Source: Myxococcales bacterium (GTDB lineage: Bacteria > Myxococcota > Myxococcia > Myxococcales > UBA5297). Taken from it: a stretch of 64,000 nucleotides of DNA. Shown one piece after another: positions 5,860 through 43,006 of this stretch (positions within the stretch are counted from its first letter, which is position 1; each line of letters opens with the position of its first letter). The position numbers and the translations under genes are program-made. The DNA lies in assembly GCA_050288705.1 (NCBI GenBank), contig JBNKEI010000169.1:1108-65107 (forward strand), in the 5' to 3' direction. Under the pieces are notes generated by a model. That model ran no database searches and was not told where the DNA came from. It saw only the letters and a list, made by a program, of their open reading frames with translations.

Positions 5860-6098
5860 ATAAAGCGATCTACAACTATTGTGCTACGACTTAAGATTCC
5901 CATTGAGAAAGCGGACCAACGGGATTTTGGGCCATGAATAGTCTATTCTAAATCATTGGTTTACAATTTTTAACAATTTGTTTGATAAGCGAGTTAGTTT
6001 TTCGTATCAGCCAATTCCTGGCAAACGAATAGAGCATTAATAAAATGAACGGATAAGGAATGAGATCTCTGAAACAAAATCTTAATACCAAATCTTGG

Positions 6099-6130
6099 AA
6101 AAAATTCTTGGGCTGAAATATTCAGCCCAA
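6099..6130 (-). terminator. Intrinsic terminator for the MIIA-domain gene
   Basis: TTGGGCTGAA-ATA-TTCAGCCCAA perfect stem, with a T tract on the minus strand. Confidence 0.6.
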
Positions 6131-6188
6131 ATTTCTCGAGAATTTAAGCTACTATTTCTCGGTGATTCTTAAGGAGACGTCAACAGCA

Positions 6189-7202
6189 TCATCTAGGAAT
6201 CGAGTGTAACTTTTTATCAAGTTCACCGAATTTAAGCATGAGGTGATAGAGACTTTCGGTCCAGCGAATGCTATCCTCCTGTCGATAATGTGTTTTGTCA
6301 TCTATTGGCTTTAGATCTTGTCCCACTACTAGCTTGGAACCGCGGTCCTTGCTTCCAACTATTTCTTTGCCACCAAGAATCCAATCATCGCCGTCTCCAG
6401 CCATTTGGAATACGTCGTTGCCGCCAAAGCCGCGGTTTTCTGCGCGATACTCTCTGCCGTCATGTTTTATATCGCTCGATTTTCCTGGGCCTTTGTCAAT
6501 ATCAGAAATAGTCGCGTGATCATTGCCACAAGTTATGTCGAGCTGCTTGGTTGTGGTCCAGCCATTTTTGTTGGCAGCCGTTGTTCTCACATCGATTCGC
6601 GTACCATCCGGCAATTTGAATACTGAATCTCTCTTGAAATCCCATGTACCTCCATCGCCCTCGGCCACATGGGGATCACCAGAGACGTTCGTGGTTTTCC
6701 CCTCGGGTGATACAATTGTCCAACCTTGATTGTTTTTTTTCGAAGGAATGATTTTGTATCCACCAGGAGTAGTGTACGAGCCATTGTCATTTTTGGTTAA
6801 TTTTGGTCTATGACTGTGATGATGATGATGATGATGCCCTCCTTCTATATCATCCACAGCACCTTCAACCTCAAAAGCATCTAGTGCGTCTTTCTGATCT
6901 AGATGGAAAAAATCTGGACCCTTTTCCGAATTTTCCACCAGATTAAAATAGGCTGGATTGTCAAGAAAAAACTTGCATGCATTTTTTAAAGCCAATGGCG
7001 CCCCAGGGTTATTGTAAGCAATATCGTGCAAATCGTTTTTGTCAATTTGTGCGCAGCTGCCTTTTGCTCCTGCAATCAATTTGAAATTGTTTTTTAATAT
7101 ACGAATAGCCTTTTTATAATCCATTTTTCCCCAAGGCAAAGATCCAGAATAAGGGAAAGCCCCAGAAGGGGAATGTCCTGGAGGCATAGGTAAAATTGAC
7201 AT
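6189..7202 (-). CDS. DUF1521 / MIIA (metal-inducible autocleavage, GDPH) domain protein; putative T3SS substrate
   Basis: Start ATG 7202 with TAGGAG RBS. Ser/Pro-rich N-terminus, His-run linker, then NVSGDPHVAEGDGGTWDFKRDSVFKLPDGTRIDVRT...QLDIT, matching the DUF1521 pattern. N-terminal domain is paralogous to 7647..8255. Confidence 0.75.
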   Translation of the reverse strand: MSILPMPPGHSPSGAFPYSGSLPWGKMDYKKAIRILKNNFKLIAGAKGSCAQIDKNDLHDIAYNNPGAPLALKNACKFFLDNPAYFNLVENSEKGPDFFHLDQKDALDAFEVEGAVDDIEGGHHHHHHHSHRPKLTKNDNGSYTTPGGYKIIPSKKNNQGWTIVSPEGKTTNVSGDPHVAEGDGGTWDFKRDSVFKLPDGTRIDVRTTAANKNGWTTTKQLDITCGNDHATISDIDKGPGKSSDIKHDGREYRAENRGFGGNDVFQMAGDGDDWILGGKEIVGSKDRGSKLVVGQDLKPIDDKTHYRQEDSIRWTESLYHLMLKFGELDKKLHSIPR

Positions 7203-8594: not shown

Positions 8595-8873
8595 ATGATT
8601 GGCGCAATCGTTGGCGGAATAGCAAGTCAAGCAATTGGTAAAATAGCCAGTAATGCTATCGGCAATATTATGGGCGGTGGCGGCCAAGAAGGGGCTTCGG
8701 GCATGTCTAAAGCTGAACTGGAGGAGCAACACAAAAAGAGCATGGAAGAACAATATGCTATGATGGCTCTCCAAGACAAAATGGCCCATGATAACACTAT
8801 GGCACAAATGATATCTAACATACAGAAGTCAGAAATCGATACCCTAAAAGGCATTGCAGCCAACATGAAGTAA
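8595..8873 (+). CDS. T3SS needle/pilin-like small helical protein
   Basis: 92 aa with TAGGAG RBS. C-terminus LQDKMAHDNTMAQMISNIQKSEIDTLKGIAANMK fits the Q..M......SN..K...D....I..N.K/R pattern of SctF-like filament subunits. Confidence 0.6.
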   Translation: MIGAIVGGIASQAIGKIASNAIGNIMGGGGQEGASGMSKAELEEQHKKSMEEQYAMMALQDKMAHDNTMAQMISNIQKSEIDTLKGIAANMK

Positions 8874-8898
8874 TTATCCTAACCTTTGTACAATCATA

Positions 8899-8930
8899 AC
8901 GCGTGAACTAATATCTTGTGGTTCACGCGT
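8899..8930 (+). terminator. Stem-loop after the needle-like gene (partial terminator or mRNA stabiliser)
   Basis: ACGCGTGAAC-N12-GTTCACGCGT perfect 10-bp stem; the T tract is not immediately adjacent. Confidence 0.5.
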
Positions 8931-8984
8931 ATATCCCCAAGATTTTTTATTTTATTCATTGTTATTTTGAAATAGGAGAAAATT

Positions 8985-9542
8985 ATGCCTAGTCAACATG
9001 CAACATATCAAGAACCACCAGAAATTACCGAGCAACGAAAGCAAGTACTGCATGAACTCCAAAAGGCGGCCAAATCTCATTCAGGAATATTGCAAGAAGT
9101 ATTGCTAAAAATATATCAAGTAGTACAGAATACAACCCCTGACTCGAACCGCGATGCTCGATTAACTAAAGACACTCAACTGGCTATTCAGCAATATTTG
9201 AATGCTCGTAAATCAGGCAAGGTTTCTTCCGAGATCCCCCAGGCCATCCCTTTAGCCGTTGAATTTATACAAAACAATATAAAAGTGCTAGGAGAAGCAA
9301 CTCGTTTAGAAACAGAAGGGAAGCCCCTGGAAGTCAAAGAGTTCAAAGGAATAAAAACCTTTCTGCCGTCCTTGCGCACCATACACTTTGATAATGATGC
9401 ACTTGAATTGACACCACAGGGGTACCATCGCCAGGTTTTCTTAGGAGAATATTATGCCACCAATACAATCACTCAGAGCCCTCGTATCCGTACAAAAACT
9501 CCTGGATGGGTAAATCCAGCGCTAGGCCACATTATTGTTTAG
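8985..9542 (+). CDS. Hypothetical protein
   Basis: 185-aa ORF with TAGGAG RBS; no motif recognised. Confidence 0.65.
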   Translation: MPSQHATYQEPPEITEQRKQVLHELQKAAKSHSGILQEVLLKIYQVVQNTTPDSNRDARLTKDTQLAIQQYLNARKSGKVSSEIPQAIPLAVEFIQNNIKVLGEATRLETEGKPLEVKEFKGIKTFLPSLRTIHFDNDALELTPQGYHRQVFLGEYYATNTITQSPRIRTKTPGWVNPALGHIIV

Positions 9543-9871
9543 ATACATGCGCATTCCCCCTTGCACTTCTGCTCCAGTTTTTTGTGCTTCCAACTGCAAG
9601 AAAGAACAAAGACTATTTTGAATAGCTCAAGGACAAAAGACTTCAGAATACTCTGTGCGTTGCCAGCATTGCAGAAGAACAGTTTCTCCGAATCAGCTCA
9701 ATGATCACAGCCATTCAAAAACTCTTAGTGAATCAAGCACTAAACCACCCTGATGTTAAATGCAAGCGCATACTTGGATTTTGATCGAGAGTGCAAGTTG
9801 TTGTTGACCGATATCCAGTTCACTGCAAAAATTATAAATTGAATTTGGGCGATCCTAATAACGTAGGCCAA

Positions 9872-29151: not shown

Positions 29152-30234
29152 TTACCGCTGGCCAAACGTTTGCGTCCAATAGCTCTGGTACTGAGATGCG
29201 CTAACATTTGCGTACCCCACCCCGATTTCATTCGAATTTGCATTAAGAATGTTTCTGCAATGCCCGGAAGAATTCATCCATCCAGCTACTACTGCTTGGG
29301 CACTACTATAACCTGCAGCAATATTTTCTCCGGTTGCGAAGGCAGTGTAATTAGCCTGCGCTATACGATCCCAGGGACTAGAACCATTTAATCCAGTATG
29401 GTTGAAGTAATTTTGATTTCCCATATCCAGACTGTGACAACGAGCAGCCTCGCGAAGGCGAGAGTCCATTACCAATGGCGATGAAGGAGCAAACCAAGTA
29501 CCTCCGCAGTTTCCACCTTGTGCCCGTTGCTGGTTGACTAACGCGACAACCTCATTTTCAAAAGCAACCCATGCTGTTGGCCAGGAAGCGGCATTACGGC
29601 AATCCAAAGCTGTACCCGGTTGTGGCTCGGGCTCTGGTTGTGGTTCAGGTTCAGGTTCCGGTTCAGGGGAATTTTGCTCGAACGAAGCAACTAAAGAGAC
29701 CCCCGAGAAGCTACTATAAGCGCTAACCATAACGTACCAGGTTCCCGATCGTGGTGCATTCACAACTACTGCTTCGTTATTGCCATTAAGATAGGGTCGG
29801 AAATCCCAAATTCTCAGCGTAGGAGCATCGCCATATTTAACATACAAATCGGCATCCCCTGTTCCTCCGGAGATTTTAAATTTCAAATTGGTTGCATTAG
29901 CTGGAACCTTAAACGTATAATTAAACTTTTCTCCTCGTACTCCTGACAAAGGAGAAATAGCAACATTGTTCTGCAGTGGAGTTAAAAAAGAAAGCCTGCT
30001 CTCTATCGACTCAATATCGTCGCTAACTTGCTTCTTTTCTACCGAATTATCTGCAAAAACGTCTTCGCTATCCGCAATAGGCTGTCCATTGCAACCAACC
30101 ACGAGTGTTATAGCACAAAAAACAGTAAGCAAAGTTGCTATGCGTGAAGCTACTTCAGGAACCATACGATTATCAGGTCCATTTATACTTCTCATTACTC
30201 GCTCCTTATCAATTTCGTTTGTTCGTAAAGACAA
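29152..30234 (-). CDS. Lipoprotein with PPC (pre-peptidase C-terminal) domain, Glu-Pro linker and CAP/SCP domain
   Basis: LVVGC lipobox; ISGGTGDADLYVKYG...GTWYVMV (PPC); (EP)n linker; LVNQQRA, ARCHSLDM, GENIAAG, WMNSSGHCRNI, YWTQTFG (CAP). True start probably downstream of 30234. Confidence 0.85.
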   Translation of the reverse strand: MSLRTNEIDKERVMRSINGPDNRMVPEVASRIATLLTVFCAITLVVGCNGQPIADSEDVFADNSVEKKQVSDDIESIESRLSFLTPLQNNVAISPLSGVRGEKFNYTFKVPANATNLKFKISGGTGDADLYVKYGDAPTLRIWDFRPYLNGNNEAVVVNAPRSGTWYVMVSAYSSFSGVSLVASFEQNSPEPEPEPEPQPEPEPQPGTALDCRNAASWPTAWVAFENEVVALVNQQRAQGGNCGGTWFAPSSPLVMDSRLREAARCHSLDMGNQNYFNHTGLNGSSPWDRIAQANYTAFATGENIAAGYSSAQAVVAGWMNSSGHCRNILNANSNEIGVGYANVSASQYQSYWTQTFGQR

Positions 30235-30470
30235 AAAGCTATCTAGTTATATTCCCTAAACCGGGGAATGCACCACAAAAAAGTCATAAAAGCACAATGC
30301 ATAACGCGTTTCAAGAAAAGAGCACAATTCTTAACCATCGATAGTTTCATCATTTACGAATCGGTTGCAAAATCATGGGCGATCAAACTGATCGCATTTC
30401 GGTTACAGATCGAGACACCATCCATAATCGAATTTTAAATTAGCTAATTAAATAAAAAACTCGGTAAAGC

Positions 30471-30680
30471 TTATTCTATTTTGGATTTTGCCACCGATAT
30501 ACTTAGCTGTTTATGAGCTCTTTTTAGACGAGATTTTACTGCCTCTTTAGTCAGCTTGAATTGGGTAGCTAATTCGTGAATCGAGCGCCCCTCACTCCGA
30601 AGAAGAAGCAGTTGACGGTTCAAAAACGGCAGTTTTCCAGCCATAGTTCGATGGGGGCATCTCCACATAGCCACGAAATC
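30471..30680 (-). pseudogene. Probable C-terminal remnant (region 4 HTH) of an ECF sigma factor
   Basis: LPFLNRQLLLLRSEGRSIHELATQFKLTKEAVKSRLKRAHKQL; the 5' part is replaced by duplicated DNA at 30681. Confidence 0.55.
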
Positions 30681-30907
30681 GGGACACAATTCTGAAAGAA
30701 CCGTGGTGGAAGAACTTCTTTTTGAGGGTGGTCAGAATTCGCTCTAGGTCTAGGGCGTGTCCCCATATCCAGCACCACGCCCTCCGTCATTCCCGATTCC
30801 CGCCTTCGCGGGAATGACGGAGCGGCGATGTCGGATATAGGGACATGCCCTAGTTTTTACTCCATGATCATCTCCTGAGAGAACTTTGGAGGCCTCTCAG
30901 GCTCTCA
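30681..30907 (+). repeat. Composite duplication of 28244..28297 and 29024..29097
   Basis: 30681..30734 matches 28244..28297 (1 mismatch). 30734..30753 plus 30854..30907 matches 29024..29097. Confidence 0.9.
30750..30853. mobile_element. About 100-bp palindromic MITE-like element inserted at CTAG
   Basis: CTAG-GGCGTGTCCCCATATCC...GGATATAGGGACATGCC-CTAG; empty site at 29040..29043; internal CTCCGTCATTCCCG...CGGGAATGACGGAG hairpin. Confidence 0.8.
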
Positions 30908-30911
30908 GGCT

Positions 30912-31304
30912 CTATCCCCCAGACTCCTCGTGAGCGATCATTCTTCTATTTACCCATATTCCCATCAAATAGGTCACCACAAAAATTGAAGCAAAAGGAA
31001 TCCAAGTACCTAAAGGACTTTTAAACATGTCCAAACTTTTATTAACGATTAAGGCCACCAGAAAAAAATCAACAAGAACAGTAAAACCAATAAATACCAA
31101 CGCCGTCATGAGAGGCCTAGTATAATTAAATTTTTTATGATAAGTAAATGACAATATTCCAAAAGCAATAGTTCCACCCACAGCGTGAATAATCAAGGCA
31201 ACCTGCATGGGAAATAGACGCATTCCCACACCCATAAGAGAAGCACAAATAAGCCATCCAATCAATGCAAACAACAAAACAATCGACTTCTTTTTTAATT
31301 CCAT
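30912..31304 (-). CDS. Small integral membrane protein (about 4 TM segments)
   Basis: 130 aa with four hydrophobic segments; GAGGAG RBS. Confidence 0.75.
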   Translation of the reverse strand: MELKKKSIVLLFALIGWLICASLMGVGMRLFPMQVALIIHAVGGTIAFGILSFTYHKKFNYTRPLMTALVFIGFTVLVDFFLVALIVNKSLDMFKSPLGTWIPFASIFVVTYLMGIWVNRRMIAHEESGG

Positions 31305-31319
31305 GTTATAAGTTCTCCT

Positions 31320-32747
31320 CTATTTACTTTCAACATATCGTTCATACAGTTTCTTTATTTCCGTCCCATCAAGTATATTCGTATAAATACTAAACTCATC
31401 TATCGACCCGTTCCATCGATAATCTGACCAATACTGCCCAATATATATATTTCCCAAATCTCCCGGGTCGCCAAATTCTTTCTGGTAATGCTGAGTTTCT
31501 CCTTGTTTCTCACCATCGACGAAAAATTCTATTTGTTTTTCTTCATTATCAACAGTCAATACAAAAAAGTGCCACTCATTTGCAGGAAATTTGTAACCTG
31601 ATCCAATTATTTCTGTGCTCCCATTTTCTATAACTATATCCCATTCTCCACCCGCAGTTCTGATATGAAACAACTTATCTATCCTGAAATAGGCGCATGT
31701 TATATTTGCATTTCGGCTTTGCAACCAGGCAGAAATGGTATACTTCTGCGATTCAAGCATCAAATCATTTTCCACCAACACATAGTCAGTATCACCATTC
31801 AACGCTATCGCACTACCCACTTTACCCTTAACAAATACTGGATTCCCATTAGCAGTTCCATCAAGCCCATTTTGCACCTCATCATAGGTATTTTCAAAAC
31901 TATAGTGGGCTACCGGAACCGGTTCAACCAATTGCTCGGAAAACACCATCCGCCCCCAATTTTCGGGACCACCGAAGGTGGCGCAATCGCTAGACCAGCA
32001 GGTATATTCGTTCTCACCGTCATCATTTCTGTCGTTGAGACTCAAGTTAAAACCAAACACCTGGTCTTTGATTGGCACATCGATCTTCCATTTCGACCAT
32101 GGTATGGCCATCTCCACAACATACCCTAAATCGGATTTGCCATCGTTCAGCTCTCCATCCAACTTAACGTATGAGGAAAAATCGCTGTCCCAGGCGAAAT
32201 CCAGAGAGTCGCCATTACCTTGCAAATCTGCCTGCGTTCCCCTTACCGACACTAAGAACTGGTAGTCATCAATATTCATTTTGGCGCCACCATCAAGTTT
32301 GGTATCAAACAACAATCCCAGCGAGTCTTCTAACCACAATCGGTCGTCGCGGTATTGGTAAACAGCGTGGAGTGCCGAATCTTCAACTCGGCCGGCTACG
32401 TATAAGGCCTGGTCATCCCACATAAACTGATATGCGCCCTTAGTCCCGCGCTGATTGTCCAGAATGATCTTGCCCGCGCTTCCAAACTCACTGTTGTTCC
32501 CATCAACAACGGCAGCCTTCGTGGCCCTTAGCACCTGATAGGTCTTTGCAGATTCACATATGCCTTGTACGCATGTTTTGCCACTAGGGCAGTCAGCGTT
32601 TTTCTTACATCCCGAGATGCAAACTTCTTCCTTACAGTACGCACCCGATGGACAATCTGCATTTTTCTGGCAGCTAAAAGGAAACTCTTTCTTGCAAGCT
32701 GATAGCCAAGCCACCCCAGCCAAAGCGAGAAAAACGAATTTATTCAT
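31320..32747 (-). CDS. Lipoprotein: two Cys-rich modules, CBM9-like sugar-binding domain and LamG/ConA-like domain
   Basis: Start MNKFVFLALAGVAWLSAC at 32747; CQKNADCPSGAYC and CKKNADCPSGKTC; MWDDQALYVAGRVED, GYVVEMAIPW (CBM9-like); GSAIALNG, EWHFFVLT, WNGSIDEFSIY (LamG). Confidence 0.8.
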   Translation of the reverse strand: MNKFVFLALAGVAWLSACKKEFPFSCQKNADCPSGAYCKEEVCISGCKKNADCPSGKTCVQGICESAKTYQVLRATKAAVVDGNNSEFGSAGKIILDNQRGTKGAYQFMWDDQALYVAGRVEDSALHAVYQYRDDRLWLEDSLGLLFDTKLDGGAKMNIDDYQFLVSVRGTQADLQGNGDSLDFAWDSDFSSYVKLDGELNDGKSDLGYVVEMAIPWSKWKIDVPIKDQVFGFNLSLNDRNDDGENEYTCWSSDCATFGGPENWGRMVFSEQLVEPVPVAHYSFENTYDEVQNGLDGTANGNPVFVKGKVGSAIALNGDTDYVLVENDLMLESQKYTISAWLQSRNANITCAYFRIDKLFHIRTAGGEWDIVIENGSTEIIGSGYKFPANEWHFFVLTVDNEEKQIEFFVDGEKQGETQHYQKEFGDPGDLGNIYIGQYWSDYRWNGSIDEFSIYTNILDGTEIKKLYERYVESK

Positions 32748-33055
32748 AAATAGCCTCTTCATGAACAGCTCAAACTTCATCATGCCCGCTGCATTTTCAT
32801 TAATGAATTCAAAACTGACGCAGCAGGCACAGCCATGGTTAGCAAAAAAAACTTTAGATTGGCAAGAAAATAATAGTACAACACTGAGCGCAAGTTGTAT
32901 TTGGAACAACGCATATTAAAAATATTAATATTATTTTTAATTACACCGTAATATAATTTTCATTATGTTGATTCTTGCTGCAAGTAAGTGTAAGACTTTC
33001 AATAGCTCTAGCGCTTGGTATGCTCCAAGGTGGGATATGACAAACGGAGGAAAAA

Positions 33056-34354
33056 ATGCGTAGGATAGTTAGTACATTGTTCGTTATTTTGTCGATTACG
33101 GCAGTATTCTACTGCAGTGGACAGAACACTGAAAGCAAAGACCCTTCTTCTGAAGATCCCACTGATAATCCTGGTGATGGTGGCGATGATGAACAGCCAA
33201 ATGGACAAGAACCGGAGGGAGAACCCGAGGAAGAAGTTATCCCTAGCGTGAAAGGAGTAGAAGCTTTGGGGGTACGATGGGTGGGACGAGTAGACACCAC
33301 TGCTGATAAACCATGTTTTTCCTGGTCAGGCTCTGGCTTTGTAGCCCGGTTTACTGGCACCAACATTACAGTAAAAATTAAAAATGATCGCGACATATAT
33401 TTTCAGCCAGTAATGGATGGAAAACCTTTGGACCGCGTAGAGATGAGGGCAGGAGAAGACACCTATGTGGGAAGAGTTTCTGAGGACAAAGCAGAACATA
33501 TTTTTGAATATTATCGAGAAACCGAAGGATATTCTTTCGGAGCCTCGCAATTGTTAGAAATAAAAGTTGAAAATGGGTCATTGTTAGAGCCACCCCTTTT
33601 TAGTGGACGAACTATTGAAATTGTTGGCGACTCTATCTCCGCAGGGTATGGTAATTTGGGCGAAGAAATACACCCTAATTGGGGAGACGCCATAGCACCA
33701 TGTCGATTTAGCCCATTCACAGAAAGCGCATACGCAACTTACGGGTGGTTGGCAGCAAAAAAACTCAAAGCTGATGCAAGTATATTAGCAGCTTCTGGAT
33801 TTGGAATGTACCAGAGCAATCAAGGCTCTACTGAACACGTACTCCCCAAGTTCTATAATCGCATCATTGCAGACAACGAGAACCCTACTTGGAATTTTAA
33901 TGAAAAAGTTAGACCACAAGTAGTTGTAATCAATCTAGGCACTAATGATTTTTATTCTGGAAATAAATGCCCGACAGTGAATGCAGAATATTATAAAGAA
34001 GCCTATTCAGATTTTATCAATACTATCCGCAAAAATAACTCCCAGGCATGGATATTTTGCACCATCGGACCAATGCTTTCTGATTGGTATCCATCCGGTT
34101 GCAAAGTTTTAACCAATGTAAAAACACATATACAATCAGTCATTGAAAAACATCAAGCTGATGGCGATGACCGAATTAGTTTTTTAGAGTTCCATCCGGA
34201 ATCTGATCTTTCTGATTGCACTCCCGACTATAAAAGCTGTACCGAAACAACTGGCTGTGACTGGCATCCAAACGTAACTGTTCAACAAAGAATGGCGGAC
34301 ATTTTAGTTCAGGCGATCAAACAAAAAGTTCAAGAAAAGAAAATATCTTGGTAA
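33056..34354 (+). CDS. Secreted/lipoprotein SGNH hydrolase, carbohydrate esterase family 2-like
   Basis: FSWSGSG N-domain, IEIVGDSISAGYG, INLGTNDF, CDWHP; acidic linker after the signal peptide. Confidence 0.85.
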   Translation: MRRIVSTLFVILSITAVFYCSGQNTESKDPSSEDPTDNPGDGGDDEQPNGQEPEGEPEEEVIPSVKGVEALGVRWVGRVDTTADKPCFSWSGSGFVARFTGTNITVKIKNDRDIYFQPVMDGKPLDRVEMRAGEDTYVGRVSEDKAEHIFEYYRETEGYSFGASQLLEIKVENGSLLEPPLFSGRTIEIVGDSISAGYGNLGEEIHPNWGDAIAPCRFSPFTESAYATYGWLAAKKLKADASILAASGFGMYQSNQGSTEHVLPKFYNRIIADNENPTWNFNEKVRPQVVVINLGTNDFYSGNKCPTVNAEYYKEAYSDFINTIRKNNSQAWIFCTIGPMLSDWYPSGCKVLTNVKTHIQSVIEKHQADGDDRISFLEFHPESDLSDCTPDYKSCTETTGCDWHPNVTVQQRMADILVQAIKQKVQEKKISW

Positions 34355-36856: not shown

Positions 36857-37462
36857 GTGAATTTCTTCCCGAATTTGAACCAAGGGTCTCGTCTAATAGC
36901 TACTGGTCTAGCAGTTGCACTTGCAACAATACCTGGAACTTTGTGCCTTGCCGACTCCAAGGCTCCCCAAGAAATCGAAACCGAAAGTCTTGCCGCTGGC
37001 GCATGCATTGGTCGCGGTGCAGGAACAGTAGGGGGCTATGTAAAATTTCGTCCTTTTGATTTTTTGGGAATCGAGGCCAGCTTAGGCAAACGGCTATTTA
37101 AATTCGATGATTTCGGGGATATTGAATTTTATTGGCCTACTACGGGAGCCGTGCGGGTGGAATTCTTTTTTATGGATCGGTTTCAACGTCTGCAAGCAGG
37201 CATTTCTAGTGGGCTTCTTGCCGCTCAAGACATGGGACTGGGAGTGGATCTTGCCGGCATTGTAACTTGGCGAATACACCGGCATATTCACCTGGATGGA
37301 CTTTTGGGGATAGCAGTTTTTCCACAAATTAAATCGCGTCAAATCAATTATTTAATCAACAAAAGCGGTCGTACCGAATCATTTTATAAGCATAGCGCCA
37401 CTTTTGTAGATATTTCGCCAATCATTCCCATGTGGGGAATGGGCATTGCCTGGGTATTTTAG
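36857..37462 (+). CDS. Secreted hypothetical protein, probable small outer-membrane beta-barrel
   Basis: Signal peptide, alternating amphipathic strands, C-terminal WGMGIAWVF. Confidence 0.6.
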   Translation: MNFFPNLNQGSRLIATGLAVALATIPGTLCLADSKAPQEIETESLAAGACIGRGAGTVGGYVKFRPFDFLGIEASLGKRLFKFDDFGDIEFYWPTTGAVRVEFFFMDRFQRLQAGISSGLLAAQDMGLGVDLAGIVTWRIHRHIHLDGLLGIAVFPQIKSRQINYLINKSGRTESFYKHSATFVDISPIIPMWGMGIAWVF

Positions 37463-37464
37463 TC

Positions 37465-38931
37465 ATGATCAAACCTACAAAAACCTCGGTTGCCGCACTG
37501 GTGGAACAATTACAGCCATTTTTTACTATTCTCCGCCGAGAAGACGCCCACTCTCTAACGCAAATCCCTGAATACGTTCAAGAGATTTGGACTAGGCTCG
37601 TACCTTATTTTCGCACTTCATTGCACGAGGCATGGAATGATGTTTGGGAAAATCAAGATGATGAAGAGTCCCTAGCTTCTTTTCGTTTTCAACTACGCAA
37701 ATTATTGACTAAAGAAAAAAAACTCGATGAGGAACTAGCTGGTTTTCTGGGGTTGCAAAACACCGCTCCTCGCCCCTTTTCTTCTTCGTCTTTCCAAGGA
37801 TTAGACCCCTCAGACGAAACATTACGCCGCTTAGAAATGGTGCGCTTGCTGCGTTGGGGAGTCAAGCCAGAAAAAATCACCAAAGCGTTCAATATTAATC
37901 AGCAACAACTGTTCGCGATTCATGCTTCCTTTACTTCTCACGGCGTTAGCGGAATTCTTCCCGGAAACCTTGCTAGGCGTTGGTTTGAGCAGCTTAATCG
38001 CGACGATCCCATGTTGCGTCGACTGGAGATGGTACGCTTAGCTAGAACAGGAGTTCCCGCAGAGATTGCCGGTTCTGAATTTGGAGCAGTTCCTGAATAC
38101 GTGGAAAAGCTTTCTACCCGGTTTGCCAAAAATGGTTTTGCCGGATTACTCACTGAAGAAGAAGAAAACAAAGCCCGCCAGTCCCGGCCATCGGCAATAC
38201 GTATCGCCACCTATAACTTGCACGGGATTCACGACGGAAATGATTTGCGTTTTCGCTATATTGCTCGCGAGTTAAGCGCTTTCGAACCAGAGATAGTGGC
38301 TTTTCAAGAAGCGATTAATGGCAACGGAATCCGGGAAACCAGTGCTCAGGTAGCGCAAAAAATGTCCGCCATGATTGGTGCACACTATCGAACATTTTAC
38401 TCCCATTGCCATTTGTATCGCGAGACTTATCCGGAAGGTGTTGCGGTCTGCGCGCGTTTTGCTTTCACTAATCCTCAAACTATTGACCTCAATGAAAAGC
38501 TCAGAGATGGCTTGAAGCCTACTATGCCGCGATATGCTTCCGCTTTTCAAATCCAGATTCGAGAGAAGAAAGTAGCTGTAGCCTCTACGCATCTCGATCA
38601 TGGAAGCAGTTCGGATGTTCGCGCCGCACAAGCAGAAAAACTTGTTTTGGAAATGGAAAAGCTGTATCCCCACGTCGATATTTTAATAATTGCCGGAGAC
38701 ATGAATGACGTGGAGAATTCATTGACTCTCGAACAATTCCGATCAAAGGGATATATAGACGCATATCGCAGTTGCCAGCCAAGGGGGGGGAATACGTTTA
38801 CTGCTGACCATCCTCATACTCGCATTGACTTTATACTCATAAAAGGCTCGGTCAAGCTGGTAAGCGCGCGTACTATTTTGGCAGATCCCCGATGCAGCGA
38901 TCACTTAGGAGTATTAGTGACATGCATTTAA
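37465..38931 (+). CDS. Tandem HTH repeats fused to an endonuclease/exonuclease/phosphatase (EEP) domain
   Basis: Two repeats D..LRRLEMVRL.R.GV..E....F...........F...G..G.L. EEP motifs IATYNLHG, AFQEA, STHLD, IAGDMND, RIDFILI, SDHLGV. ATG 37465 lies 2 bp after the previous stop. Confidence 0.85.
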   Translation: MIKPTKTSVAALVEQLQPFFTILRREDAHSLTQIPEYVQEIWTRLVPYFRTSLHEAWNDVWENQDDEESLASFRFQLRKLLTKEKKLDEELAGFLGLQNTAPRPFSSSSFQGLDPSDETLRRLEMVRLLRWGVKPEKITKAFNINQQQLFAIHASFTSHGVSGILPGNLARRWFEQLNRDDPMLRRLEMVRLARTGVPAEIAGSEFGAVPEYVEKLSTRFAKNGFAGLLTEEEENKARQSRPSAIRIATYNLHGIHDGNDLRFRYIARELSAFEPEIVAFQEAINGNGIRETSAQVAQKMSAMIGAHYRTFYSHCHLYRETYPEGVAVCARFAFTNPQTIDLNEKLRDGLKPTMPRYASAFQIQIREKKVAVASTHLDHGSSSDVRAAQAEKLVLEMEKLYPHVDILIIAGDMNDVENSLTLEQFRSKGYIDAYRSCQPRGGNTFTADHPHTRIDFILIKGSVKLVSARTILADPRCSDHLGVLVTCI

Positions 38932-38997
38932 ATTGAAATTGCCTGCATTTCGATATATCTACCTATAAAATCATTTAAGATCTCACGAGGTAGGATA

Positions 38998-41900
38998 ATG
39001 CCCCACCGCGCAGGGTATTTTGTTTTAGCATATAATTGGGATCATCACTGTAGCGATTTGGCGGAAACTATTAAAACGCGTTTCGGCCATCTTTACTGCG
39101 AGCTGGAATCGCTAGCGCTTCCTCAACGCAATTCGCGCGCACACCTGATTGCATATTTGAGCAATTGGCAATCTTTACAAGAACGTTTTCAACAACACAT
39201 TCATGAGCTAGATCGCCGTTGCCAAACCATTCATGAACTTGGGCAACGCGGTTACGGGACTAATCGCGACCTTCTTCAGGCCTTGCAAATTTTGGCCAAA
39301 GAACAAAGAGCAGTAACCGAACCCATATTCCACCAGAAATTCGAGCATTGTATTCCCCGACTTCCCAAAAAAGGTTCTATTCCCAAAGAAGTAGTGGTAG
39401 CGCGCGACGTGAAAACGCTTGTGACCATTCTAGGCAGTCCCACCTTTAACAATACTTCCGAGCACGATATTATCTCCAACGGCTTCGGCCAGTATTTTCA
39501 GGCGATGTCAAAAACGCCATGGGTGGTCAACACTTCAATTTTTCAAAAGCTTTTTTTGAAAATTGGCGCTGCTTCCATGACTCTAATGCAAGGAAAAGTG
39601 GGACTTTCTTCGCCACGACCGGCGCGCGAGTTAAAAATAACCGCTAACCGTAATTTTATGGAAATGTATCGAGAATCGTTCGCCAGTTTGCACTTGTTTT
39701 CAGAAATTGGACTCGATTTTTTAAAACATATTCACTGGGTACTTTCGAAAGGCATCTACGCTGATGCTGGCCATTTTCGCACGATTGACTTTCCCGATCG
39801 CAATGGAGTCACCACTGAATTTAATAATCTTTCCCGTGAAATCGGCAATCTAACCCATGTTCTAAGAGAAACTGCTCGCAGCTTCCATGATCTACCCAAA
39901 TTCATATGGGACCTTGCTCGGTCGTACTACATGTTTATTGGTATTCATCCTTTTTCGGACTCCAATGGTCGCGTGGGCCGAATATTTCTTAACCACATGC
40001 TTTTGAAAAAAGGAATCCCTCCCATTGGATTCCACGACAAAGACGAAATTTTTGCCTTACCTCGATATGGTGGAACCATGGAGGATATGCACCAATATTT
40101 ACTTCGTCGAATTTCCCTTGCAACCGAAGATTATTTTCGTGAACGAACCCTCATGGAATCTGCTGGCCGGTTCGACAAAGATGTATATAATATTTCATTT
40201 GATTCCGGATGCCATTTTCAGCAAATCGATGATAACCCTCAGCATATTGAAGTGCATCTTCCCGTATATATCGCCCCCGAAGAATCACCCGAAGCTAAAC
40301 TGCTAATCAACCATGGCAAAATTGTGCTTTCCAATGAAGAATTACTGCCAGATTTTTCTTTATATTGCGGATTGACCGACACTGAGAGAGGGGACTGGAA
40401 ACATACATTAGGATTGATTAGACCGCGCTCATCACACGAGATTTCTTCCGATGTTCCCGCCACAAAATCATTCGAGCTCCGTTACGCCATTGACTTTGAC
40501 AAAGAATTTTCCGAACACGAGTATCTTTGCTGCTCCGCGGTTTCTCCTAGTAACCAGCAAGTGTTCAGTAATCAAGGAGCTTATTATTCATTACGCTTAG
40601 AAAAGCGTCATTTTACCGGCATCCATCATTCTTTGGCGGCTGAGCGTTATGCTTTTCCTTCATATAAATGGCTCAACGCCCGCCGCATGCTTCCCGTAAC
40701 TCCTCATGGGCTAGCAGTTTGTAATCCGGGAGGAATTGGTTTCTCATTTATGGGCGGCGCTGAGGGAATGTCTCTCAAAGTTCTGCTGCAATTATGGCGG
40801 GCAGACGGAGCCAGTGAGCATTATCTTTGCGATGCCTACCGCGTGCACGATTTTGGTGGCGATTGGCAACAGTGGCAAACCCACCGCCTTCCATTGCTAC
40901 CATGGGACGGACCACACGGACATGTTACCTACGCTGTTTTTTCTTATTTAATCCACCGCAGCAATCAAGCCCTAGTTTCTCAAAACTGCTATAAGTTTGC
41001 GACCTTTGCAGAGTTTTCCAGCAATTCAACTGATCGTACTGATTTTTTTGATCCCTGCTATAAAACAGAAAACCCTTACACCCTTAATCAAGTTGACGCC
41101 CAAGAGTTGCAAGCGGCCTACGATCGGGTCTGTAATTCCCAGACTTTGGACATGGAGGTCAGATTTACCCGTGGAAACCCGGGAAGCCCCGAGCACCCGG
41201 TGAACGAAATTCACCGCGAAATCGACCGGGTAATTGCCAAAAAGAAAGACGATCCCCAAGGTCGTCATTGGATTCATTTAGCTTTGTTTGACTTAGACAA
41301 TTATCACATTGCAGAGCACTTGATTTATGCAAAAAATCAAGGAGTTGAAGTTGAGTGTTTAGGCGACTGGGCGGGAATGAGTGCGCTCAATCGCACTGAT
41401 AATATTGCCCGAATTCGTAAAGCCGGTATCCCAGTTTTGGGAATAGTTCGCAACACCCCAGGAGTGCCCTCTGAGGGCATTGGAAGCATGCATACGAAAA
41501 TTTTTATTTTCGATGGGGAAGTAGTGCATAGCAGTTCTTATAATTTGCATTTCCATCTTTGGGGTGGAAACCGTGAAGAGGTTATGATTTTTCGCTCGCC
41601 AGAAATAGCTCTTCTTCATGAAAATATATTTCAAGCTATACGAGGAGGAATCATTCAGCCATTACAAATTGATCCTCTTGCATCATTTAATTTGTACTAT
41701 AGTTTTGGCTATACCATTACTAAAGAAGGAAAATTGTTCCGCGCGCAAGACGCCATACTTACCGAAATCCATAATGCCCAAAAATCGATAGAAGTTTGCA
41801 TGTTCGACATTGGATTTCTAGTGGGCACATCTTTAGGAGATTCTTTTGAATCCGATGTAGTATCAGCCCTCATTCATGCCCGAAATCGAGGCATAAGAGT

Positions 41901-42237
41901 AAAAGTAATATTGAATGGACAAATTGCCCACACTGGTCAGCTCCCGGCGAGTTGGGATAAAAAATTCAGACGCCCACTCAAACCAGCCGCCAAACGATTG
42001 AAGGACGCCTGGGTTGACGTCTCGTTTTTGTATTACCACGAAAGCGTTTATTCCCCTCTGCATCACAAAATAGCAGTAATTGATGGACACACTTCGGTCA
42101 TTGGATCGTATAACTGGTATGAAGCCAGCCTAGTTTCTGACGAAGTAGTTTCAGTAATAAGGAACCGACAATTAGCCAAAACACTTTCCGATGAAATTCA
42201 TCTTATTGAAAAGTCCTATCGCTTGGAGAAAGAGTAG
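38998..42237 (+). CDS. Fic domain-phospholipase D (two HKD motifs) fusion protein
   Basis: Fic motif IHPFSDSNGRVGR (39946); HKD motifs MHTKIFIFDG...SSYN (41491) and LHHKIAVIDG...GSYNW (42061); 1079-aa continuous ORF with RBS. Confidence 0.85.
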   Translation: MPHRAGYFVLAYNWDHHCSDLAETIKTRFGHLYCELESLALPQRNSRAHLIAYLSNWQSLQERFQQHIHELDRRCQTIHELGQRGYGTNRDLLQALQILAKEQRAVTEPIFHQKFEHCIPRLPKKGSIPKEVVVARDVKTLVTILGSPTFNNTSEHDIISNGFGQYFQAMSKTPWVVNTSIFQKLFLKIGAASMTLMQGKVGLSSPRPARELKITANRNFMEMYRESFASLHLFSEIGLDFLKHIHWVLSKGIYADAGHFRTIDFPDRNGVTTEFNNLSREIGNLTHVLRETARSFHDLPKFIWDLARSYYMFIGIHPFSDSNGRVGRIFLNHMLLKKGIPPIGFHDKDEIFALPRYGGTMEDMHQYLLRRISLATEDYFRERTLMESAGRFDKDVYNISFDSGCHFQQIDDNPQHIEVHLPVYIAPEESPEAKLLINHGKIVLSNEELLPDFSLYCGLTDTERGDWKHTLGLIRPRSSHEISSDVPATKSFELRYAIDFDKEFSEHEYLCCSAVSPSNQQVFSNQGAYYSLRLEKRHFTGIHHSLAAERYAFPSYKWLNARRMLPVTPHGLAVCNPGGIGFSFMGGAEGMSLKVLLQLWRADGASEHYLCDAYRVHDFGGDWQQWQTHRLPLLPWDGPHGHVTYAVFSYLIHRSNQALVSQNCYKFATFAEFSSNSTDRTDFFDPCYKTENPYTLNQVDAQELQAAYDRVCNSQTLDMEVRFTRGNPGSPEHPVNEIHREIDRVIAKKKDDPQGRHWIHLALFDLDNYHIAEHLIYAKNQGVEVECLGDWAGMSALNRTDNIARIRKAGIPVLGIVRNTPGVPSEGIGSMHTKIFIFDGEVVHSSSYNLHFHLWGGNREEVMIFRSPEIALLHENIFQAIRGGIIQPLQIDPLASFNLYYSFGYTITKEGKLFRAQDAILTEIHNAQKSIEVCMFDIGFLVGTSLGDSFESDVVSALIHARNRGIRVKVILNGQIAHTGQLPASWDKKFRRPLKPAAKRLKDAWVDVSFLYYHESVYSPLHHKIAVIDGHTSVIGSYNWYEASLVSDEVVSVIRNRQLAKTLSDEIHLIEKSYRLEKE

Positions 42238-42257: not shown

Positions 42258-42758
42258 TTAAAAAATAATAGATGGCATTTTCTTTGAGTCGTTCATGTAT
42301 TTTTTCAACGCATCCAATGTCAATACTCGACACCCATCAGCAATTAAGTAAGGAGCACATCTCTCATCATCAGTAAGCACTTGGCATTTCGTTTCTACTG
42401 CCACCAGATATAACGATGCATCAGCAACTCCGACATAACGAAGAAAATGATACCCTAAGATTTTTTCTTTAGGGATGTATATTTCAAATTGTTTTTTGCT
42501 AGAAAAAACTTTCTTAAAAACATCGAAGAATGGCTCGTTTTTCTCTCCAATCCTATCAGTTAAATTTGAAACCTCAGTAAGAATACTCGGAGTTACATAT
42601 ACCTTACTAGCATTAGCTATATACGTTTGGACATATTCGAAATCTTCGATCGAGTAAGAAGAAGTTCTTTTATTGCTTCGCATCAATTTTTGATCGTATA
42701 ATCCTATAAGAAACAAAACTAATAGGTTAGTGTCAACAAGCAGTTCCAGTTCTCTCAT
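42258..42758 (-). CDS. PIN-domain (VapC-like) ribonuclease
   Basis: LLVDTNLLV, ILTEVSNL, GVADASL, VLTDD acidic tetrad. Confidence 0.8.
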   Translation of the reverse strand: MRELELLVDTNLLVLFLIGLYDQKLMRSNKRTSSYSIEDFEYVQTYIANASKVYVTPSILTEVSNLTDRIGEKNEPFFDVFKKVFSSKKQFEIYIPKEKILGYHFLRYVGVADASLYLVAVETKCQVLTDDERCAPYLIADGCRVLTLDALKKYMNDSKKMPSIIF

Positions 42759-43006
42759 GACATGGCTCTATCGGGATCCAGAAATTTCATTGAAAGAGCC
42801 ATACCCTTATCTGGATCAATATCGATCTGTTTAAAAATTTTCTTTGGTGGCAGAATAAGATCTCCCGCCGGGTTTTCGTAATAGCTTACGACGACTACCC
42901 ACACTCCTTTTTCGAATAACACCGCTTCGGTGGTTAATTTCACCTGAGGGTCTGATATTTCTTTAAAGTAGTCGCGCGCGATATGCACTGCATCTTTGGC
43001 TTCCAT
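42755..43006 (-). CDS. Small protein translationally coupled to the PIN gene (antitoxin-like partner)
   Basis: 83 aa with GAGG RBS; ATGA overlap with the PIN gene start. Confidence 0.65.
   Translation of the reverse strand: MEAKDAVHIARDYFKEISDPQVKLTTEAVLFEKGVWVVVVSYYENPAGDLILPPKKIFKQIDIDPDKGMALSMKFLDPDRAMS

Follow-up and report, generated by a model that had tools for sequence, protein, structure and literature searches.

Do an endonuclease/exonuclease/phosphatase (EEP) protein, a Fic enzyme and a phospholipase D (PLD) that are encoded side by side act as one system, and if so, on what substrate? This question is raised by positions 36857-42237 of a stretch of 64,000 nucleotides from a Myxococcales bacterium (GenBank assembly GCA_050288705.1, contig JBNKEI010000169.1, positions 1,108 to 65,107), which was analysed as a whole and is called the window here. 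Three open reading frames (ORFs) lie there on the + strand, at 36857-37462, 37432-38931 and 38998-42237, and we refer to their products as P0001, P0002 and P0003 (1079 amino acids, aa), respectively. A first-pass annotation, made from the letters of the window, had described three co-directional genes at these coordinates and had proposed that they form a new system, with Fic as writer, the EEP as eraser and the PLD as effector, for example in anti-phage defence or stress signalling; ORF calls, Pfam and motif searches agree on the arrangement and on intact catalytic residues. Here, we show that the second and third genes form a self-contained and conserved three-enzyme set (the cassette), the last two genes of which are fused at their former junction in the window. 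The explanation that we favour, with confidence somewhat short of even, is that the cassette is a cytoplasmic write-and-erase set that acts on one phosphodiester substrate and is probably tied to alpha-glucan metabolism.

The fusion of Fic and PLD modules in P0003 recurs in other genomes. A search of 5.8 billion proteins returned eight other full-length Fic-PLD clusters at 48-59% identity, plus one partial cluster, and their named sources are metagenome-assembled 'Myxococcales' or 'Deltaproteobacteria' genomes. Among 40 relatives of the window's genome, four, all of the same family, carry a full-length fused copy, and an orthologue of P0002 (49-53% identity), a protein with two helix-turn-helix (HTH) units ahead of its EEP domain, occurs in the same four genomes only, in each case directly upstream and on the same strand. 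When 18 proteins of the window were compared with these four loci, only the HTH-EEP and Fic-PLD proteins were specifically shared; the matches of the ABC-F and thioesterase proteins were weak, at family level and at other positions. The fusion is conserved across genomes and is therefore not an assembly artefact, a possibility that the first-pass annotation had left standing. Short, near-identical pieces turned up on contigs from three other runs, but not one of them crosses the fusion junction (40606-40638), and the sole contig that spans it may be the window's own source. In one related genome (G002:C4:2973792-2977044, locus L013) the Fic-PLD orthologue reads in two frames, with a switch near residue 925 that reflects either a frameshift or a sequencing error, and the deposited protein (P0010) continues into an unrelated tail.

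Split Fic and PLD orthologues beside HTH-EEP genes, which had been suggested as a check on the proposed system, proved to be the rule: three separate genes are the common form of the cassette and the fusion is the rare one. A search for shorter proteins gave 174 matches, and the 120 listed are about 535-545 aa long; among the matches listed, 73 carry PLDc_2 only and 47 carry Fic only, and most come from Nitrospirota. On a Candidatus Magnetobacteriaceae contig, the one locus found in a scan of genome contigs, the HTH-EEP gene is followed by a Fic half equivalent to P0003 residues 1-536 and then by a PLD half equivalent to residues 548-1076. An EEP orthologue is present in ten of 301 Nitrospirota genomes, all ten of which have EEP, Fic-half and PLD-half genes in this order and co-directional, and an independent query with the PLD family matched the same ten. 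A metagenome scan with the Fic-half alignment yielded 32 further loci with a guanine-plus-cytosine (G+C) content of 0.34-0.64; the EEP gene lies directly upstream in 28 of the 30 that have enough DNA (the exceptions, L045 and L049, are sisters in the Fic-half tree), and the PLD half lies downstream in 16 of 19 (exceptions L045, L052 and L055). Across relatives, Nitrospirota and metagenome loci, the co-occurrence of HTH-EEP with Fic and PLD is strict and adjacent, the cassette is single-copy per genome, and clustering of flanking ORFs revealed no further family shared across lineages except glgB. The first of the three genes in the window, which had been counted as a member of the set, drops out, because P0001 has no tblastn match at the four related-genome loci, the ten Nitrospirota loci or the 32 metagenome loci. 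The Fic-half tree, a quick tree with open forks, groups the loci by base composition and lineage, which suggests that the cassette has descended mainly vertically.

Several loci carry variants of this arrangement. At L045, an OmpA-family gene stands downstream in place of the PLD half. A metagenome contig of 4461 nucleotides (L071) encodes a distant form, with about 30% identity and two divergent EEP-Fic pairs, and L069 (9102-9893) holds a decayed cassette in which the EEP is intact, the Fic protein is cut to 263 aa and the PLD half is missing, beside glgB and a GH57 gene. In a low-G+C Nitrospirota lineage (L024, at 5987-6914 and 8648-9710, and also L050 and L055), small ORFs without a family match lie inside the cassette; those between the EEP and Fic genes are HicA/HicB-like and RelE-like by eye, and a conserved pair of genes of 168 and 188 aa, with no convincing Pfam family, separates the Fic half from the PLD half. 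The small-gene insertion of L024 recurs in L055.

The HTH-EEP family comprises 54 clusters, and the architecture that the first-pass annotation had read into P0002, two HTH units joined to an EEP domain, is borne out by Pfam and by the structural model. The gene (37465-38931, + strand) most likely starts at the ATG at 37465 (MIKPTKTS...), because the aligned orthologues, 37 in all, begin there; the longest ORF starts at 37432, and residue numbers are counted from that start. An N-terminal helical domain (37465-37806, residues 12-125, with helices at 20-110 in the model) has no Pfam match and is kept among the 37 orthologues. Two tandem three-helix HTH units follow (37816-38148, residues 129-175 and 193-239): HTH_23 matches residues 130-174 with 29.2 bits (cut-off 24.6), HTH_28 matches residues 196-240 with 20.4 bits, under its cut-off of 25, and the second unit clearly repeats the first within the protein (LRRLEMVRL...). 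The cores of both units are invariant in the 37 proteins, as are R196, R197, L198, M200, L203, G207 and P209. The catalytic domain (38197-38925, residues 256-498) belongs to the EEP superfamily by its Exo_endo_phos match at residues 259-491 (58.3 bits, cut-off 24.5); N262, E293, H387, D389, H390, D423, N425, D426, D466, D490 and H491 are invariant, and a family-specific insert carries an invariant PEG motif. In the AlphaFold model (mean predicted local distance difference test score, pLDDT, 87.1), the helical N-domain, two three-helix bundles and an EEP sandwich can be recognized. The nearest solved folds of the EEP domain are the uncharacterised 4ruw, 3teb, 3g6s and 3mpr, followed by TDP2, nocturnin, CNOT6L and ANGEL2, and these nearest characterised folds all act on nucleotide phosphoesters. 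Fold and catalytic residues are shared with 3teb, 4ruw, 3g6s, 3mpr and the EEPs of the TDP2, nocturnin and CCR4 type; identity is 14-23%, and the cassette protein adds the helical N-domain, the two HTH units and the PEG insert. MapP is an EEP-type maltose 6'-phosphate phosphatase, and two of the 54 EEP homologues are labelled 'maltose 6'-phosphate phosphatase', which is an automatic Joint Genome Institute (JGI) name.

The fused gene (38998-42237, + strand) opens with the Fic module, whose helical N-region and Fic core occupy 38998-40167 (residues 1-390) and whose N-terminus, MPHRAGYFVLAY.WDHHC, is nearly invariant. A Pfam Fic domain at residues 239-335 (42.1 bits, cut-off 24) places the module in the Fic/Fido superfamily. 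The motif HPFSDSNGRVGR (39946-39981, residues 317-328) is near-canonical, as had been noticed before: in the Fic motif HxFx(D/E)GNGRxxR, only the first Gly is replaced, by Ser. Among the ten commonest variants, which cover 34 of 45 Fic halves, this sixth position is S, G (5 halves, which have the canonical GNGR), C (4) or T (1), and all other motif residues are kept, with the His, Asp, Asn and both Arg conserved. Phosphocholine transfer of the AnkX type, which the Ser of the motif had suggested, was set aside because the position varies in this way within the family. Fic proteins of classes I-III possess an auto-inhibitory helix, (S/T)xxxE(G/N); this pattern is not conserved in the cassette, being present at any single column in at most four of 45 Fic halves and at most two of 37 EEP proteins. 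By profile search of the PDB, the best solved relatives of the module are 8wt0, a 205-aa Fic protein (5.5e-11), and FICD (5e-9). The module ends with a beta-rich domain (40183-40605, residues 396-536) of no Pfam family, in which residues 396-533 are strands in the model (block pLDDT about 52-85) and residue 536 corresponds to the end of the stand-alone Fic-half genes in other genomes.

A linker (40606-40638, residues 537-547) then replaces the stop/start junction found between the separate genes, which abut or overlap at the split loci, with tblastn matches 15-36 nucleotides apart. The PLD module consists of an N-terminal beta-rich domain (40639-41142, residues 548-715), which has no Pfam match and is shared with CBM20-bearing relatives, and a two-lobed HKD catalytic domain (41143-42237). 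Two uncharacterised middle regions had been pointed out in P0003, and both remain without a Pfam family, at residues of about 396-536 and 548-715. The two complete HKD motifs described earlier were also recovered, HTKIFIFD at residues 832-839 (41491-41514) and HHKIAVID at 1022-1029 (42061-42084), and in 51 sequences neither motif varies at H, K or D; a PLDc_2 match in two stretches (119.5 bits, cut-off 27), PLDc at residues 829-850 and a Foldseek match to 7e0m (E 1.7e-13) agree in assigning the module to the PLD superfamily. The family is small, with 59 matches below 1e-30 in a profile search of 1.84 billion representatives, and the ESM Atlas returned generic 'phospholipase D' clusters only. 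The best solved relatives by profile are Zucchini (4.4e-13), Nuc (7.7e-8) and NucT, and Foldseek matched 7e0m, vaccinia F13, PLD3/4, PLD1/2 and phosphatidylserine synthase; because Foldseek ranks phospholipase-type PLDs and PLD3/4 alike, the fold does not single out nucleases. The model of P0003 was built on 13 aligned rows and has a mean pLDDT of 63.3, with residues 537-692 below 50 and unreliable. A complex prediction with Fic residues 1-395 and EEP residues 12-499, with a separate alignment for each chain, scored 0.00 against a mark of 0.32, which favours neither outcome. P0002 and P0003 are both predicted to be free of signal peptides and membrane segments, as the first reading had it: the highest 19-residue hydropathy is 1.1 in P0003 and 1.5 in P0002, where the maximum sits in the first residues and is not shared by orthologues.

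The three enzymes would fit together chemically, since a Fic enzyme makes a phosphodiester and a TDP2-like EEP or an HKD enzyme can each break one. In the catalytic steps that we infer, the Fic module would most likely transfer a nucleotide-derived phospho-group, by default adenosine monophosphate (AMP), onto a hydroxyl and so create a phosphodiester. The HTH-EEP protein would be a metal-dependent phosphoesterase of the TDP2/nocturnin-like branch and the best candidate to hydrolyse the phosphodiester made by Fic, and the PLD module, a putative two-HKD phosphodiesterase with its own N-terminal beta domain, may act on this substrate as well or on the product formed from it. DNA binding and autoregulation of the operon are the most likely functions of the two HTH units. 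We would place the shared substrate in glycogen metabolism rather than in phage defence, with the glucan or its branching enzyme as the candidate.

Alpha-glucan metabolism is the best available context because of the housekeeping surroundings, the adjacency of glgB and the CBM20 relatives of the PLD module. By Pfam, most of the 107 proteins around the ten Nitrospirota loci have housekeeping functions; penicillin-binding proteins, radical SAM enzymes, chorismate synthase, alanine dehydrogenase and chemotaxis proteins are examples. The metagenome flanks encode enolase, a class II tRNA synthetase (D/K/N type), a class-V aminotransferase with NifU, an amidase, DinB (one locus), a cystathionine-type pyridoxal-phosphate enzyme of Cys/Met metabolism, DJ-1, and YceD with a fatty-acid-synthesis protein (PF02504), and those of the related myxobacteria an ABC-2 transporter, transposases (two genomes) and glutaredoxin. 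Among 47 loci examined, 33 have at least 1 kb of flank, and in nine of these 33 glgB lies within 750 nucleotides of the cassette, its product carrying GlgB_N, CBM_48, Alpha-amylase and Alpha-amylase_C domains. The gene is downstream and co-directional in L037 and L041, upstream and co-directional in L054, where it overlaps the EEP start by 4 nucleotides, and in L069, where a GH57 gene also lies upstream, and downstream and convergent in L051, L053, L058, L059 and L062. The first-pass annotation had named a neighbourhood of ordinary sugar metabolism among the findings that would speak against its proposal, and such a neighbourhood is present in part, with glgB beside the cassette in these nine loci; the flanks as a whole are mostly housekeeping.

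An independent second clue comes from distant relatives of the PLD module, eight of the 13 scanned having a C-terminal CBM_20 starch-binding domain (present in P0014, P0015, P0016, P0195, P0197, P0199, P0202 and P0203, absent from P0198, P0200, P0221, P0224 and P0263). The alignment of these PLD-CBM20 proteins extends through the entire PLD module (30% identity, E 1e-58); P0003 from residue 593 onward aligns to the N-terminal beta region of P0015, and the PLD-module profile covers residues 65-581 of that protein. In one myxobacterial genome, the sole genomic locus of this sister family seen (L078, G516:C10:29000-48900), two PAS/GAF histidine-kinase genes and two PLD-CBM20 genes (577 and 655 aa) are followed by an EEP gene of the same subfamily, whose product shares the family insert with its PEGVAV segment and has an Asp-Ala-Gly-rich linker. 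This sister set differs from the cassette in its CBM20 domains and lipoprotein EEP and in having neither a Fic gene nor HTH units.

A number of observations weigh against a link to glycogen. The nine loci with glgB nearby belong to just two clades of the Fic-half tree, so that independent events are few; the window's genome (G000) has two glgB copies, both on other contigs, glgB is not adjacent in the four related genomes, and eight of the ten Nitrospirota genomes have it elsewhere. No glgA, glgC or glgP family was found among the flanks scanned, the cassette's own PLD module has no CBM20 by Pfam, and a literature search, judged by titles and abstracts, found no Fic enzyme acting in glycogen metabolism. 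The EEP of the sister set has a predicted lipoprotein signal, so that set, a putative starch-binding group of phosphodiesterases, is probably extracytoplasmic. In addition, the best profile relatives of the PLD module are nucleases, and a nucleic-acid substrate fits equally well; the patchy distribution (10/301 and 4/40) is also typical of conflict systems; and the HTH units are unexplained by a purely metabolic role. We hold a more specific version, in which Fic would write a reversible nucleotide-derived phosphodiester mark on glycogen or GlgB and the TDP2-like EEP and the CBM-related PLD would erase it, to be distinctly unlikely as it stands.

The same domains could serve an anti-phage or toxin-antitoxin-like module in which Fic, the Nuc-like PLD or both are toxic and the HTH-EEP protein is neutralizer and autorepressor, as in DarT-DarG. 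This explanation, which we consider fairly unlikely, draws on the resemblance of the domains to components of PDC-S04, SoFic and DrmC, on a DNA-binding protein being encoded first, an order seen in many toxin-antitoxin operons, and on the lack of a built-in Fic inhibitor motif; nuclease relatives of the PLD, the patchy distribution with variable flanks, the PIN-domain gene just downstream in the window, the small genes without family inside the cassette in L024, L050 and L055, and the transposases near the cassette in two related genomes all point the same way. However, the context lends the defence function proposed by the first-pass annotation no support. In PADLOC-DB 2.0, P0001 and P0002 match no family and P0003 has only partial matches of Fic type and DrmC type, all at domain level (PDC-S04 7.2e-17, SoFic 4.9e-11 and DrmC 3.6e-10), and no system model was matched. 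The PADLOC matches among the 107 Nitrospirota flanking proteins are mostly generic folds (radical SAM enzymes matching pVip, and GlgB), and one locus has candidate PDC genes. The cassette lies between housekeeping genes and was not found in the viral contigs, phage records or plasmids searched, so that neither a defence island nor a mobile element is indicated, within the small samples searched with PADLOC; its single copy per genome and the largely vertical descent suggested by the Fic tree also count against a conflict system. A further alternative, a secreted effector or toxin of a predatory myxobacterium directed against prey, would agree with the myxobacterial nature of the genome, as judged from homologue names, and with the fact that other bacteria secrete effectors containing Fic and two-HKD PLD domains. 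It is, however, extremely improbable, given the lack of a signal peptide or hydrophobic segment, the lack of a secretion-system or immunity gene nearby, and the fact that the commonest hosts of the same three genes are Nitrospirota.

Two further alternatives keep the chemistry and move the substrate. In one, the cassette would be a reversible protein-AMPylation switch in stress or metabolism, independent of glycogen, with the EEP as deAMPylase and the PLD as regulated output or modified target. TDP2 cleaves a tyrosine-nucleotide phosphodiester, which is the same chemistry as deAMPylation, and the TDP2-like EEP, the proximity of the Fic core to FICD-type and Fic AMP transferases, the canonical GNGR in five halves and the Fic-PLD fusion, which argues for a close physical link, would all suit such a switch. 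No neighbour except glgB indicates a target, though, and the CBM20 domains of PLD-module relatives are left unexplained. The nuclease-fold enzyme RNase Z, reported to be a deAMPylase (PMC12663964), provides a precedent, but a 2025 review (PMC12409994) names no EEP among the known deAMPylase folds, and we regard this switch as fairly unlikely. In the other, HTH units would target DNA, EEP and PLD would remove adducts or cut, and Fic would modify, for example, gyrase, in keeping with the fusion of two HTH units to the EEP domain, with TDP2 among the closest characterised folds, with Nuc, NucT and Zucchini as the best PLD profile matches, and with Fic toxins reported to AMPylate GyrB (PMC13327609). 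Such nucleic-acid end-processing or repair is nonetheless very unlikely in our view, for no conserved repair, replication or recombination gene lies nearby (DinB occurs in one locus only), the CBM20 relatives and glgB adjacency go unexplained, and Foldseek ranks two-lobed phospholipase-type PLDs and PLD3/4 about equally.

How does the cassette compare with known systems? With Fic AMP transferases that have a reverser or inhibitor (FICD; FicT-FicA and VbhT-VbhA; Fic-1-AntF) it shares the catalytic His, Asp, Asn and Arg, and like SidM-SidD, a non-Fic writer/eraser pair, it encodes a possible counteracting protein beside the writer. In FicT/FicA, the Fic toxin is about 200 aa long and a small antitoxin supplies the inhibitory glutamate. 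In the cassette, by contrast, neither protein has the [ST]xxxE[GN] inhibitory helix, the place of a small antitoxin or PPM-fold phosphatase is taken by an HTH-HTH-EEP enzyme of 488-499 aa, the Fic module, at about 540 aa, includes a beta domain and an N-terminal region without a match, and a two-HKD PLD module is added; it is thus not of the FicT/FicA type. The likeness to SoFic, PDC-S04 and the DrmC of DISARM is at the level of single domains, the SoFic match covers model positions 95-219 of 361, the neighbours scanned with Pfam in the window and at related loci include no DrmA, DrmB or methylase family, and architecture and gene set differ. As a whole, the cassette lacks the defining features of FicT-FicA, SoFic, DISARM and any other PADLOC model. 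The reversible glucan phosphorylation of plants and animals, with glucan water dikinase and SEX4/LSF2 in the former and laforin with its CBM20 in the latter, offers an analogy only, in that phosphoester writers and erasers act on an alpha-glucan and a phosphoesterase carries CBM20; the folds are entirely different. The 2025 review counts three deAMPylase folds, those of Fic, of the adenylyltransferase domain and of the SidD phosphatase (PMC12409994); RNase Z has since been reported as a deAMPylase (PMC12663964), and the review also recounts that the logic of neighbouring genes led to SidD. The first-pass annotation knew of no system of this architecture, and our full-text literature search, in which subscription journals are thinly covered and supplements lie outside, likewise gave no account of the cassette.

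The remaining features of the window concern the surroundings of the cassette. The small gene for P0001 (36857-37462, + strand), a neighbour outside the conserved set, has a GTG start with AGGAG 7 nucleotides before it, and its product, called beta-barrel-like by the first-pass annotation, has a hydrophobic, signal-like N-terminus, a C-terminal Phe and no Pfam family. With this good ribosome-binding site and a stop 3 nucleotides before the EEP ATG, the gene is probably co-transcribed with the EEP gene here, although it is absent from all other loci. A promoter and terminator scan gave no signal (10 promoter-like sites against 13.8 expected, and 10 terminator-like sites against 7.4 expected). 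The cassette is flanked in the window by genes for an ABC-F ATPase, a thioesterase, a convergent PIN-domain protein and a glycosyltransferase. The PIN-domain gene (42258-43006, - strand; 166 aa, Pfam E 2.3e-4, under the gathering score) is preceded and overlapped by an 83-aa ORF without family, and the two resemble a VapBC-type pair, convergent with the Fic-PLD gene. Upstream, 29152-34354 encodes a CAP/PPC-domain protein, a CBM9 and laminin-G protein and a GDSL esterase of CE2 type, all three resembling secreted proteins of the carbohydrate-active or surface kind. The G+C content of the window is 40-50% (about 45%), against 69-72% at the cassette loci of same-family genomes (L003 and L011-L013), a wide difference in composition for a single family.

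Together, three well-known phosphodiester-handling folds are locked in one operon in at least Myxococcota and Nitrospirota, and the naturally split and fused forms are ready-made constructs for biochemistry whichever explanation holds. A defence or toxin-antitoxin function, if that is what the cassette has instead, would make it a system of a new type, in which the neutralizer is an HTH-EEP enzyme. If the EEP protein undoes what Fic does, the few known deAMPylase folds would gain a new one, and, were the mark to lie on glycogen or GlgB, a fold of TDP2 type would for the first time be seen as a deAMPylase or phosphodiesterase in that role. If the glgB and CBM20 clues hold, the cassette would provide the first link of Fic chemistry to storage-polysaccharide metabolism, and a mark on glycogen or GlgB would give prokaryotes a counterpart, made of unrelated folds, to the cycle of glucan phosphorylation in plants and animals.

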